From assembly GCA_019358935.1 (NCBI GenBank), contig JAHHIK010000091.1, positions 1 through 34,281 on the forward strand: DNA of 34,281 nucleotides. The letters run 5' to 3'. A program made the position numbers. Shown in pieces: positions 27,001 through 28,539 of the stretch. Numbering within the stretch: the first letter of the stretch is position 1; each line of letters opens with the position of its first letter. Origin of the DNA: Tolypothrix carrinoi HA7290-LM1 (GTDB lineage: Bacteria; Cyanobacteriota; Cyanobacteriia; Cyanobacteriales; Nostocaceae).

Positions 27001-28539
27001 GAAGCGATCGCGTGGCTTTGAGTGAGTGCTGGTGATTACCGATTGCAGCTACGTCTGTGTGGCTACTGTATGTTGTAAATTTAGGATTGCTCACCTAACG
27101 TCGCTGTTATATTGGGATGGATATAGAAAAAATATGGCTTGCTAAGTTCCAAAATCCACTCTCATGCTATCCATTCAACTATCTCAAATTCTGCGGTTGG
27201 AGTAAGCAAAAAATAGTTTTCCAAAAGATTCTAGAAGCATGAAACTTGAGACAATAAGTATCTAGAAATATTTGGTATCGGGTTCCTGTTTGAGAATCAG
27301 TCTGAGAAAATCTTTTGTTTACTTATGAATCACCTTATTTTACTTTTGCAGTCTTTCCAAATCTTTTTTAATATTGGATTCAGCTCAGTAAAAATGTTAA
27401 ACAAGCGTGGGAGCGTTAAAAATACATTAGCCTCCAAGAGTTAATTCCTAGAGGCTTTGATATTTTAGAGAGTTGGGAGTTCCTGGGGGATTGCTCTGAG
27501 TAAAGTTATCCCAAGTTGTTTGAGTAGACCTTTATTCCCTTGCGGACACCCATGTTGTTGAAGGCATTTAGGACAATCGGCTTCGCACTCACAAGACTGG
27601 GCAAGCTGTGCTGCTGTACTCGCCAGTTTGGTAAGGTTTTGGAAGACAGCCTCGCTTGCCCTATTACCACCTTCACTGCAATCGTAGAAAAGATCGTAAT
27701 ATCCTCCATCGCCTGTGCGTTCAACAACGTAAGTAGAAAGGCGCAAAAAAACCGCTGTCTTGTAACGAAAAGTAAAGTTGTCCAAAAACCTCTTCCCTTT
27801 TGCCCCCCGGCGGGCGTAAGGAGATTTCTGCCAGTTGACATCGTGCCTTCTGCCTTGTCATAACGACAATTTGACCTACTTAATTGATGTCGTTGTGCAA
27901 AGAAAGAACCACCAGTGGTAGCGCTGCCATTACCTGATGCCCGAATGAATGGAGCGCAATTAGATTGCTTGTGCCTTTTGGGTAATAGCTAGGACTTACG
28001 CACGCTCTCAAACGAATCATCTTGTGTAATAACGTAAATAGGTCGTTTCAGCCTTTTACAAACCATGCTTTGTTATTTGCTCCCGGCAGCTTGCCGTAAG
28101 CATCACAAAAAGGTAGCTGAAAAATCTAGCTAAAAGCCCTGAAAAGCATACTTGCCATTTCGGCTTTTCTGTCAAGCGTAAGTCCTAATCTTATAAGTAA
28201 TTAAGCGAACATGGCATAACACACATAATTAATACGAAATTTGTAGCATCCCCTTGACATTATGTAGAGCTAGTACTACAAATGTAGTATGAGAATAAAG
28301 AGGACAACAAAAGGCAAAACTAAAAGCCCTTGGAACCTTGACAATTGCATAAATGCAACTTTTGGGGCCGCGATTGGTGTTCGACTGCTCCGAAACCAAC
28401 AAACGGACGGTTGCAGGATTCGGGTTCGATTCCCGACGGCTCCACTAGACTTGACTGCGGTTGAAGTTGTGTAGAGGCTTGGGTCTGTAGCTCTAACGGT
28501 AGAGATCCCGGATGTCACTTGTGCCCTGATAGAAAAAGC

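Follow-up and report, generated by a model that had tools for sequence, protein, structure and literature searches.

The closest known relative of the gene described here is a tRNA-like-domain-only (TLD-only) tmRNA of mycobacteriophage DS6A (JN698994.1, 28478-28560), a tmRNA Website entry cited in the available parts of PMC4131195 and PMC11915505. According to the same parts of these papers, a DS6A-like tRNA-like-domain RNA is a strong inhibitor of tmRNA in E. coli, perhaps because it titrates SmpB. The tmRNAs of jakobid mitochondria and of Mallomonadaceae plastids (~65 bp) that lack a coding sequence also consist of the tRNA-like domain only and are conserved with SmpB (PMC11915505, as far as available).

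Two further systems bear on the locus. The trn operon of Anabaena sp. PCC 7120 is induced by ribosome-targeting antibiotics and processed into RNAs of 70-100 nt (available text of PMC8421152). Its repressor is TrcR, whose site TGTAGTAT in the trn promoter lies at the -10 box and transcription start; the motif at trcR's own promoter reads ATACTACACTTGTATTAC (available text of PMC10272220). Lastly, YrlA-type Y RNAs are tRNA mimics that partner Ro60/Rsr and are encoded beside the gene for a Ro-like protein; their two ends join in a long Ro-binding stem around the tRNA-like part. Y RNAs are not generally aminoacylated (PMC4201824, in the part available).

Here, we analyzed a 34,281-nt stretch of the cyanobacterium Tolypothrix carrinoi HA7290-LM1 (assembly GCA_019358935.1, contig JAHHIK010000091.1, positions 1 to 34,281 of the forward strand; hereafter, the window), in which an earlier note had described a tmRNA look-alike next to a Ro-like module. 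We propose, with a probability of roughly 0.55, that this is a working gene without pseudoknots or tag frame, and that its product, hereafter mini-tmRNA, would be made under translation stress, charged with alanine and bound by SmpB.

Results

The window copy resembles a tmRNA reduced to its tRNA-like domain

The Rfam tmRNA model (RF00023) matched positions 28364-28447 on the forward strand with 47.0 bits (gathering threshold 47; E 7.8e-17 in a 2.8-kb search), in an alignment that spans model positions 1-374 and sets 316 of them against 24 nt. The end-to-end match of the earlier note was thus reproduced, at a borderline score: a whole-window Rfam run with gathering filters did not list 28364-28447, though the regional score equals the cut-off of 47, and ARAGORN, run on the window, called neither a tRNA nor a tmRNA there.

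The gene itself occupies 28364..28444 (81 nt, forward strand, as are all features below) and scored 113 bits with a covariance model of our own. A 7-bp acceptor stem is formed by GGGGCCG (28364-28370) and CGGCTCC (28437-28443), with G3.U70 and the discriminator A73 (28444). The acceptor 5' strand is followed by a D-loop analogue with GG and TTCGA but without a D stem (28371-28384), and GATTGGTGTTCGAC...GCAGGA aligns to the tmRNA model. Next come a P2 helix, CTGC/GCAG (28385-28388 with 28413-28416), which encloses an inner segment (28389-28412) whose near-invariant core, AAACCAACAAACGGACG, occupies 28393-28409; a GGA linker (28417-28419); and a T arm of five base pairs (28420-28424 with 28432-28436) whose 7-nt loop TTCGATT (28425-28431) is of the TTCRATT type and free of inserts. 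The trailer CTA (28445-28447) lies inside the Rfam match and is not an encoded CCA; CTA also follows the genome's real tmRNA gene. That full tmRNA was found at c[13445,13833] on contig C107, the place where the earlier note had put it (13445-13833), which together with the model match supports its description of a tag-less look-alike existing beside a full tmRNA.

Resume codon and tag reading frame are both missing from the window copy, and sequence reading found zero stop codons in the three frames of 28389-28444. The 24-nt inner segment leaves no space for pseudoknots PK1-PK4; within it, TCCG/CGGA with an 11-nt loop and CCG/CGG with a 15-nt loop fit alike, as there is too little variation to choose between them. 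A candidate hidden tag frame, GCT GGA TAG on the 3' side of P2 in copies of the PCC 7120 type, was rejected as chance since its stop is absent from the window and Leptolyngbya types. When the window copy was folded alone, the minimum-free-energy structure contained the acceptor stem and not the T arm (z -1.6), repeating the fold result of the earlier note, whereas homologues of the PCC 7120 and Leptolyngbya types folded into acceptor stem, P2 and T arm (z -2.3 and -2.1, respectively).

Covariation and alanine identity across the family

A 17-mer scan for homologues returned at least 120 stretches, and the covariance model, built solely from cyanobacterial copies, gave 94 matches, 65 of them distinct. 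Among these 65 homologues, 97.6% of 1012 pair cells pair, versus 35-54% with slid partners. Both sides have changed in 11 of the 16 pairs, a figure reached by none of 500 shuffles, and the covariation extends to all three helices; in the T arm, 96.2% of cells are paired across the family, with two-sided change in four of its five pairs. These matches and this covariation lie far beyond chance and mark mini-tmRNA as a genuine gene for a structured RNA. Of the 64 distinct rows with letters at pair 3-70, 57 have G.U there, while acceptor pairs 4 to 7 alternate between C-G, U-A, A-U and G-C, and 91 of the 94 model matches have A as the discriminator. The retention of G3.U70 and the compensatory stem changes claimed earlier therefore both hold.

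Variants were also found. About a quarter of the copies (23 of 94 matches, and locus L006) carry a structured insert of 19-44 nt in the T loop, beyond which the 3' strands of T stem and acceptor are intact. The earlier note had counted 15 of 49 copies as broken in the T arm; these copies are not broken but carry this insert. Unless removed, it should disturb the tRNA-like elbow. Structured T-loop inserts also occur in neighbouring array tRNAs. Seven of the 94 copies have lost 4 nt of the acceptor 5' strand and with them G3.U70, locus L129 has lost the 5' half and locus L104 the T arm, and the gene occurs patchily, in 22 of 150 other genomes of the family. In Leptolyngbya-type array copies, which encode CCA, TTCGAC is absent and GGCATCAC stands in its place, hence an SmpB-binding surface is not conserved family-wide.

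The inner core was assessed in a class sample without requiring the core itself: among 13 copies from 11 genomes, it differs in two, by one and two bases. Since the core is almost invariant, a pure SmpB-sponge model is insufficient, and the 17-nt core may mark a second, sequence-specific contact that lies outside our present model. A blastn-short search of the whole genome with the reverse complement of the loop returned chance-level matches only (best E 1.6), and a pair of 15-of-17 loop-complement matches on contig C178 does not lie in an rRNA region, according to a primer-motif check.

The near-invariant loop would also suit a sequence-specific partner away from the ribosome. The RNA, if abundant and stress-induced, might be an off-ribosome tRNA mimic: a decoy or sponge for stress-induced RNases with tRNAs or tmRNA as their targets, a substrate or cofactor of RNA repair (RtcB or the Ro-like particle), or a non-ribosomal alanine donor, with the loop as recognition site. 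RNA quality-control genes are its neighbours in the window, TTCGAC is not retained in all subtypes, and, in the available text of PMC8421152, the operon tRNAs are proposed to be sponges for toxin RNases and rtcB is co-regulated. However, G3.U70 and A73 are strictly kept, as expected of a substrate of alanyl-tRNA synthetase, and a pure decoy could do without charging; the chance-level loop complements speak against this account as well. We consider it unlikely.

Descent from tmRNA or from an array tRNA

In comparisons across the tRNA/tmRNA clan, tmRNA was the best family for the PCC 7120-type (23.4 bits) and Leptolyngbya-type (30.0 bits) copies, as it was for the accepted TLD-only tmRNA of DS6A (34.7 bits). 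Conversely, our cyanobacterial model found the DS6A gene with 52 bits (E 2.8e-12), end to end over model positions 1-81. A tRNA cloverleaf was looked for and not found: ARAGORN made no call, the tmRNA model beat the tRNA model for all three subtypes, and the inner hairpin loop measures 11-15 nt. In INPHARED, the only matches were to the T arm and acceptor 3' part, at the 3' ends of phage tmRNAs; a phage origin was rejected, as none of the four core matches in IMG/VR belongs to the family.

These results bear on whether the gene might descend from an array tRNA-Ala that lost its D stem, had its anticodon arm remodelled and converged on the shape of tmRNA, making it a new class of tRNA-like RNA. 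It sits among tRNA genes in the arrays, G3.U70 and A73 are common to tRNA-Ala and tmRNA, and the Leptolyngbya-type copies reach only 30 bits with the tmRNA model and lack TTCGAC. Set against this are the preference for the tmRNA model in all three subtypes, the missing ARAGORN tRNA, the tmRNA arrangement GG...TCGAC...GGA in the window and PCC 7120 types, the end-to-end recovery of the DS6A gene by the family model, and the 3' matches to annotated phage tmRNAs. Such a descent thus appears quite improbable. A recent deletion derivative of the resident tmRNA can be set aside too, because the T stems differ (CGGG/CCCG in mini-tmRNA, GGCAG/CTGCC in the resident tmRNA).

One family with two genomic homes

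The gene belongs to one cyanobacterial family with two homes: a slot in long, stress-induced tRNA arrays, and the first position of a Ro-like/Y-RNA-like module. The array slot lies between tRNA-Arg(CCG) and tRNA-Cys(GCA) or between tRNA-Glu(UUC) and tRNA-Tyr(GUA), and it is fixed across several families. The PCC 7120 homologue occupies the tRNA-Glu(UUC)/tRNA-Tyr(GUA) gap of the trn operon on plasmid delta (NC_003273.1, 51749-51812), and it is absent from the published 26-gene map of this operon in the available supplement of PMC8421152. The window copy lies outside a tRNA array, with Y-like RNAs instead of tRNAs downstream, while the other two subtypes lie in arrays. The earlier assignment of the gene to the Ro-like module therefore proved not to be specific, as the same gene occurs in long tRNA arrays that include the PCC 7120 trn operon.

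Downstream in the window lies the first Y-RNA-like gene (28521..28633; Rfam tRNA 51.4 bits, ARAGORN anticodon CTA). Its tRNA-like domain (28541-28611) starts 93 nt past the tmRNA match, in agreement with the spacing noted earlier. The domain is enclosed by a stem of GAAAAAGCT (28532-28540) with AGCTTTTTC (28616-28624), a 9-nt, 100% complementary inverted repeat (I2), and by an outer stem of GTGC (28521-28524) with GCAC (28630-28633). The ORF list places a 69-aa ORF, conserved downstream of module-type mini-tmRNA genes, at 28719..28928; a homologue is present in 23 of 28 long module-type loci versus none of 26 array loci. The 69-, 247- and 496-aa ORFs of the module had no match in Pfam, NCBIfam or PADLOC, and the sole PDB match of the 496-aa ORF was weak. 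A 477-aa protein (30791..32224) matched Pfam VWA_CoxE (8.3e-07) and, weakly by phmmer, the TROVE-domain structures 9l5y/9kop (E 5.2e-4, residues 25-394); this is likely to be the module's Ro-like protein (TROVE plus VWA).

A candidate TrcR operator upstream of the window copy

Sequence reading with the published motif identified a predicted promoter overlapped by a TGTAGTAT-like, putative TrcR site at 28240..28290. It comprises an upstream half-site-like TGTAGCAT (28242-28249), a -35 element TTGACA (28254-28259), a 17-nt spacer, a -10 element TACAAA (28277-28282), and a palindrome TACTACAAATGTAGTA (28274-28289) that contains TGTAGTAT (28283-28290). The palindrome occurs once in the window (0.02 expected), and the operator block, 84-133 nt upstream of the gene, is kept in 37 of 43 module-type loci. 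A probable trcR was found on contig C183, behind the exact published 18-mer. A simple sigma-70 scan of 27900-29400 returned no promoter, and the 20/21-nt repeat pattern printed in the available text of PMC8421152 had no match beside the gene at up to one mismatch.

The stretch at 28291..28363 would form a 5' leader: in the upstream alignment of module-type loci, a conserved CTTTT ends directly before G1. A U at position -1, as is the case here, is usual in RNase P substrates. RNA-library contigs from two related organisms and three studies cover 28361-28707, stop 31-46 nt upstream of the gene, and join mini-tmRNA to the first Y-like RNA; these are assembled Logan contigs that speak to presence and not to processing, with DNA carry-over possible and no run holding at least half of the words. 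Neither depth values nor gaps in the cover entered the argument.

Contigs that span both RNAs, the first place of the gene in its module and the conserved 69-aa ORF would all suit an RNA that the TROVE/VWA protein binds beside the Y-like RNAs, as the third in the Ro-like particle. A third tRNA mimic handled by this particle had also been suggested earlier. The suggestion did not find support: the gene has neither a Ro-binding, Y-RNA-type stem nor a YrlA match overlapping 28364-28447 at E up to 1, and the tRNA-array copies have no module gene nearby (0 of 26), which makes this role highly improbable. That the gene is a functionless relic or hitch-hiker, left from a tmRNA-targeted island junction or kept as a mere RNase P processing signal, is equally hard to credit in spite of its patchy distribution, the damaged copies and the common use of tmRNA genes as integration sites (available text of PMC11915505), since both halves are present, three helices covary around a G.U at 3-70, the core is almost invariant and the array slot is fixed across several families, which rules out the island-junction version.

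Discussion

How might an alanine-charged, SmpB-binding mini-tmRNA work? The window copy would be transcribed from the promoter overlapped by the TrcR-type operator, and this overlap suggests that the RNA is made when translation is stressed. RNase P would then cut off the leader, the 3' end would be trimmed and CCA added, alanyl-tRNA synthetase could charge the product via G3.U70 and A73, and the cell's single SmpB would bind it; no dedicated second SmpB was found in the genome, which has a single smpB. From there, two outcomes can be envisaged. Mini-tmRNA could compete with the full tmRNA and so damp tagging. Alternatively, it could enter stalled ribosomes and take over the peptide with no degradation tag added. 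A decoy or competitor role, as put forward in the earlier note, has a published precedent in the inhibition of tmRNA by the DS6A-like RNA (PMC4131195 and PMC11915505, available parts), whereas its mechanism in this genome is one that we infer.

More tentatively, the observations may be joined into a single picture, which we regard as possible but as the less probable course of events. In it, a second, tag-less tmRNA would act as a regulated rescue switch: repression by TrcR would lift under translation stress, and an alanine-charged RNA would work at stalled ribosomes with the help of SmpB. Perhaps it is made together with the spare tRNA set or with the Ro/Y-RNA particle, and it might either free ribosomes untagged or restrain tagging. 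On the same speculative footing, the invariant loop could provide a second contact that standard tmRNA lacks, and the T-loop inserts could be protein-spliced introns rejoined by RtcB.

Trans-translation is usually viewed as one fixed system, with one tmRNA and one SmpB, that always tags. If our proposal holds, bacteria would themselves adjust the balance of rescue and tagging through a conserved, tag-less copy of the alanine type that a translation-stress repressor controls; such an RNA has been described so far from a phage only. The homologue would be an overlooked 27th gene of the PCC 7120 trn operon, and deletion and induction phenotypes have so far been credited to the tRNAs alone. PCC 7120 is genetically tractable, and trn and trcR deletion mutants exist, so the proposal is directly testable. 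Shared regulation would furthermore link three RNA-care systems that are usually studied separately, namely spare tRNAs, RtcB repair and the Ro/Y-RNA particle.

The earlier note had presented as new a tmRNA gene of the tRNA-like domain alone that is conserved in free-living bacteria. As regards tag-less tmRNAs as a kind, the novelty did not stand, given those of DS6A, jakobid mitochondria and some plastids (PMC11915505, available part). The part that survives is narrower: our literature search found no printed report of a second, tag-less tmRNA that belongs to a host stress regulon in free-living bacteria.

Several comparisons place mini-tmRNA among the known systems. With the standard tmRNA on contig C107, it shares the acceptor 5' strand GGGGCCG and the CTA behind the gene, and with standard tmRNA it has in common G3.U70, A73, the T arm and a D-loop analogue with TTCGAC followed by the P2 helix, but it is without pseudoknots, resume codon and tag frame; its T stem shows that it did not arise recently from the resident gene by deletion. 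CDS-less organellar tmRNAs, to which we liken it by description, are the sole tmRNA of their compartment and a product of reductive evolution, whereas mini-tmRNA is an extra copy. Like YrlA-type Y RNAs, the window copy is encoded beside a gene for a probable Ro-like protein; unlike theirs, its ends form a 7-bp aminoacyl-acceptor stem and not a Ro-binding stem. The trn operon of PCC 7120 holds a mini-tmRNA homologue and shares the TGTAGTAT operator element with the window copy. In contrast to the operon's other genes, mini-tmRNA is not a tRNA that decodes, and the window copy has moved out of the array to head a Ro-like module.

The likeness is closest to the DS6A gene. At 80 nt against 81 nt, both consist of an acceptor stem, a D-loop analogue, a short hairpin where pseudoknots and tag frame would be, and a T arm; the DS6A gene matches the window copy exactly in the acceptor stem (GGGGCCG/CGGCTCC) and the ACTA end, and each RNA exists beside a full-length tmRNA of the host. 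The near-invariant loop core is mini-tmRNA's own, with only parts of it shared by DS6A. Finally, the DS6A gene belongs to a phage and lies between protein genes, whereas mini-tmRNA is chromosomal, occurs in free-living cyanobacteria, and is placed behind a candidate host stress operator or within tRNA operons.

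A probable tmRNA reduced to its tRNA-like domain

The tmRNA look-alike described in the earlier note is real. At 28364–28447 (+) of the window, the Rfam tmRNA model is matched end to end; a search of 2.8 kb scored the match at 47.0 bits (cut-off 47) with E 7.8e-17, and 24 nt stand in place of the 316 model positions of the pseudoknots and tag frame. The match is borderline in that this mini gene goes unlisted in a whole-window Rfam run with gathering filters; ARAGORN called neither a tRNA nor a tmRNA here. The genome has one smpB and one full tmRNA, the latter on another contig (C107 c[13445,13833]) as already claimed. 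The mini gene and this resident tmRNA have the acceptor 5' strand GGGGCCG and the trailing CTA in common. Their T stems differ, however, which rules out that the mini gene is a fresh deletion product of the resident tmRNA. Folded alone, the window copy again adopted a structure other than the proposed one (z -1.6); the proposed shape was obtained for copies of the PCC 7120 type (z -2.3) and the Leptolyngbya type (z -2.1).

Homologues, covariation and alanine identity

Scanning one genome per species with the 17-nt core of the inner segment returned at least 120 stretches. Seventy-five member-like stretches, the PCC 7120 plasmid and two samples of loci, six obtained with BLAST and 13 with a model, made up a set of 95 loci; among the matches listed, the other stretches came from other phyla and had the core only, with dissimilar flanks. 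A covariance model (R1) was built on 25 distinct complete copies, and its structure annotation was limited to the acceptor, P2 and T helices; at E ≤1e-5 it hit 94 of these 95 loci. Across 65 distinct rows, 97.6% of 1012 pair cells held standard pairs, pairing dropped to 35–54% when partners were slid by 1–3 columns, and 11 of 16 pairs had changed on both sides; none of 500 shuffles attained the observed pairing and covariation values. The alignment was fitted to R1 and so favours the structure, but the both-sided changes are nonetheless real sequence differences.

The acceptor stems vary (GGGGCCG/CGGCTCC, GGGGTCG/CGACTCC, GGGGTGA/TCACTCC, GGGAACG/CGTTTCC and GGGGGTG/CATCTCC). Pairs 4 to 7 do so freely, while 57 of the 64 rows that have letters at pair 3-70 show G.U, and 91 of 94 matches have A as discriminator. 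G3.U70 together with A73 is the signature by which alanyl-tRNA synthetase recognizes tRNA-Ala and tmRNA. In a variant seen at seven homologous loci (L005, L035, L103, L144, L146, L163 and L165), the acceptor 5' strand lacks 4 nt (GTGGAAATTGG) and G3.U70 is lost; an alternative 7-bp pairing, GTGGAAA/TTTCCAC, would move the 3' end of this variant by one base.

An insert in the T loop

Copies previously taken to be broken in the T arm instead carry an insert in the T loop (23 of 94 matches plus L006), past which the 3' strands of the T and acceptor stems are intact. The insert, TACCC-TNC-GGGAAGGC-AAA-GCCTAC, lies ahead of the last loop bases and is mostly 22 nt long (19 nt in L123 and L162, 42–44 nt in L006 and L052). 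It is present in all three subtypes of the mini gene, with carriers including L003, L032, L057, L078, L091, L097, L105, L107, L116, L121, L123 and L143. The same insert is found in ordinary array tRNAs (L060 near 1797, L140 near 556 and the tRNA upstream of L107); RNA-library contigs from relatives show it behind 29192 too, where the third tRNA-like gene of the window has its T loop. It folds as two mini hairpins, CCC-TNC-GGG and GGC-AAA-GCC. The first changes from ACCC...GGGA to AGCC...GGCA in L123 and L162, reads ATCT...GGGA with G.U pairs in L097, and has the longer form ACCGC...GCGGA in the tRNA upstream of L107. Since pairing is kept through these changes, the comparison points to selection on the insert at the RNA level; the insert may be either an expansion that stays in the RNA or a small intron. 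A literature search found no paper on it.

Genomic homes of the mini gene

The earlier note had placed the gene beside the Ro-like module. This holds in the window, where the first tRNA-shaped module gene indeed begins 93 nt downstream, but not as a sole home: ARAGORN on the fetched loci distinguished three settings, a module type and two array types. In the module type, the mini gene stands behind a conserved promoter; next comes a tRNA-like gene with a variable "anticodon", 130–260 nt on, or directly the 69-aa ORF. Homologues of the 69-aa and 247-aa ORFs occur in 23 and 21, respectively, of 28 long module-type loci, and in none of 26 array loci. Array type 1 (Leptolyngbya, Oculatella, Stenomitos, Pantanalinema, Myxacorys and others) keeps the mini gene in a fixed slot between tRNA-Arg(CCG) and tRNA-Cys(GCA), within arrays of at least 20 tRNA genes, and these copies encode CCA. 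Array type 2 comprises the Nostoc-type arrays, with the mini gene between tRNA-Glu(UUC) and tRNA-Tyr(GUA).

BLAST of PLSDB located the copy of the model strain, Nostoc/Anabaena sp. PCC 7120, on plasmid pCC7120delta (NC_003273.1, 51749–51812). This copy belongs to array type 2: it sits in the trn operon, the long tRNA array of this strain, in the 123 nt that separate tRNA-Glu(UUC) from tRNA-Tyr(GUA). The 26-gene map in the supplementary figure text of PMC8421152 places Tyr(GUA) directly after Glu(UUC), the word tmRNA is absent from the main texts of PMC8421152 and PMC10272220, and a literature search found no paper joining "tmRNA" with "trn operon". The gene therefore went unnoticed although the operon is well studied.

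Module and array copies coexist in Nostoc minutum NIES-26 (L038, L084) and Nostoc sp. FACHB-152 (L061, L104). L037, from a Lyngbya MAG, is a hybrid or intermediate in which a TrcR-type promoter precedes the mini gene, followed directly by tRNA-Trp and tRNA-Glu. R1 detected the gene in 22 of 150 further genomes from this organism's family (13 of 68 genera, the window's own counted); a sample drawn from across the class gave 11 of 150 other genomes. This patchy distribution is the pattern of accessory, probably mobile, gene sets.

Several neighbouring features were also noted. The three Y-RNA-like units of the window (28521–28633, 28929–29120 and 29130–29280) have in common a repeated 5' motif (GTGCCCTGA / GTGCCCTAA / GCGCCCTAA ... 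CATAC); in the first and third, stems (inverted repeats I2 and I4) enclose tRNA-like domains. The anticodon of the first such domain is CTA, as in a tRNA-shaped gene ('Pyl' in ARAGORN) lying about 181–200 nt upstream of the mini gene in Nostoc-type arrays (L006, L049, L050, L088 and L140), which suggests traffic between arrays and the Ro-like module. At 28640–28700, a look-alike of a T arm plus acceptor 3' half (GGTATCGGTTCAATCCCGATCAGATCCACTA) ends in CCACTA as the mini gene does; it may represent a half-copy or else belong to the first Y-like RNA. Weak matches to tmRNA_permuted (28665–28733, 18.6 bits) and YrlA (29186–29242, 19.7 bits) were also seen. Farther away are a 729-aa CHAT-TIR-AAA_35 protein on the opposite strand, 2.8 kb upstream (23368–25557 (-)), with PADLOC matches to CHAT and TIR defence proteins, and group II intron pieces (domain 5/6 and D1–D4 matches) at the start of the window (35–113, 4180–4292 and 6421–6497).

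An operator-like element and evidence from RNA libraries

The block upstream of the mini gene is conserved among module-type loci. In the window it reads as a -35 element, TTGACA (28254–28259 (+)), a 17-nt spacer and a -10 element, TACAAA (28277–28282 (+)), the latter overlapped by a perfect palindrome, TACTACAAATGTAGTA (28274–28289), that is unique within the window (expected 0.02). Contained in the palindrome region is an exact TGTAGTAT (28283–28290), described in PMC10272220 as the footprinted site of the repressor TrcR over the -10 box of the trn operon promoter. Of 43 module-type loci, 37 have an operator-like pattern of this kind, at a distance of 84–133 nt before the mini gene; it was found upstream of none of the array-internal copies. 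A relaxed TrcR motif occurs at only five places in this 8-Mb genome. One of them (4523–4538 of contig C183) belongs to an exact 18-mer, ATACTACACTTGTATTAC, a conserved motif of trcR's own promoter according to PMC10272220; 46 nt behind it begins a 112-aa ORF (C183, 4154–4492 (-)) that has weak, below-cut-off ribbon-helix-helix matches (E 0.018) and is probably trcR. A second exact TGTAGTAT (33843–33850), 39 nt past the stop of the 496-aa ORF, may be part of another TrcR-type promoter at the module end.

The trn operon, repressed by TrcR (PMC10272220), is reported to be silent under standard growth conditions and to be induced 100- to 1000-fold when ribosomes are targeted by antibiotics, with its transcript processed to 70–100 nt RNAs and rtcB co-regulated (PMC8421152). 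We infer that the module and array homes both belong to the translation-stress regulon. At odds with this, no match to the 20/21-nt repeat pattern of PMC8421152 was obtained here at ≤1 mismatch, and a simple sigma-70 scan reported no promoter.

No sequencing run contained at least half of the words from 28250–29300, but 18 RNA runs contained about a quarter. Three of the four runs examined (two related organisms, three studies) yielded contigs of 409–769 nt that cover 28361–28707 at 95–99% likeness. They join the mini gene to the first Y-like RNA and, on the upstream side, stop 31–46 nt short of the mini gene, between it and the predicted promoter. These assembled contigs show that the sequence is present in relatives' RNA libraries, not where transcripts end, how they are processed or that DNA was absent.

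A proposed model for mini-tmRNA function

The gene, its structure, alanine-type identity elements, two genomic homes and operator-like element are shown by the comparisons described here. Building on these, the mini gene would be transcribed under translation stress, and RNase P and 3' processing of the transcript would be followed by CCA addition; a U at -1 is conserved before the gene. The mini-tmRNA might then be charged with alanine, bind SmpB and EF-Tu, and either compete with full tmRNA or transfer the peptide tag-less on stalled ribosomes. A role as a pure sponge fits poorly with the near-invariant inner core: in a class sample found by R1 with the core not required (13 copies, 11 genomes), the 17-mer deviates in only two copies, by one and two bases, while the stems vary. 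We hold the mini-tmRNA model for the window gene with moderate confidence and flag the inner loop as a putative second contact. No complementary target of the core stands out in the genome, and the available variation is too small to discriminate internal pairing of the 24-nt segment.

Comparison with known tmRNAs

Within the tRNA/tmRNA clan, tmRNA is the best family for all three subtypes (47.0 bits for the module type of the window, 30.0 for the Leptolyngbya type and 23.4 for the PCC 7120 type) and for the gene of mycobacteriophage DS6A (34.7 bits). R1 did not pick up the resident full tmRNA at E ≤0.001. It matched the DS6A gene, an accepted tRNA-like-domain-only tmRNA, end to end (52 bits, E 2.8e-12); this gene and the window copy have an identical acceptor stem and ACTA end and are nearly equal in length. 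An RNA like that of DS6A is reported to inhibit tmRNA strongly in E. coli, perhaps through titration of SmpB (PMC4131195, PMC11915505). CDS-less tmRNAs are also described for jakobid mitochondria and two plastids (PMC11915505). The mini gene is a member of a known, little-studied kind, the tRNA-like-domain-only tmRNA. What appears to be new is its setting: it lies on a chromosome, beside a full tmRNA and behind a host stress operator, and it is embedded in spare-tRNA operons or heads a Ro/Y-RNA module.
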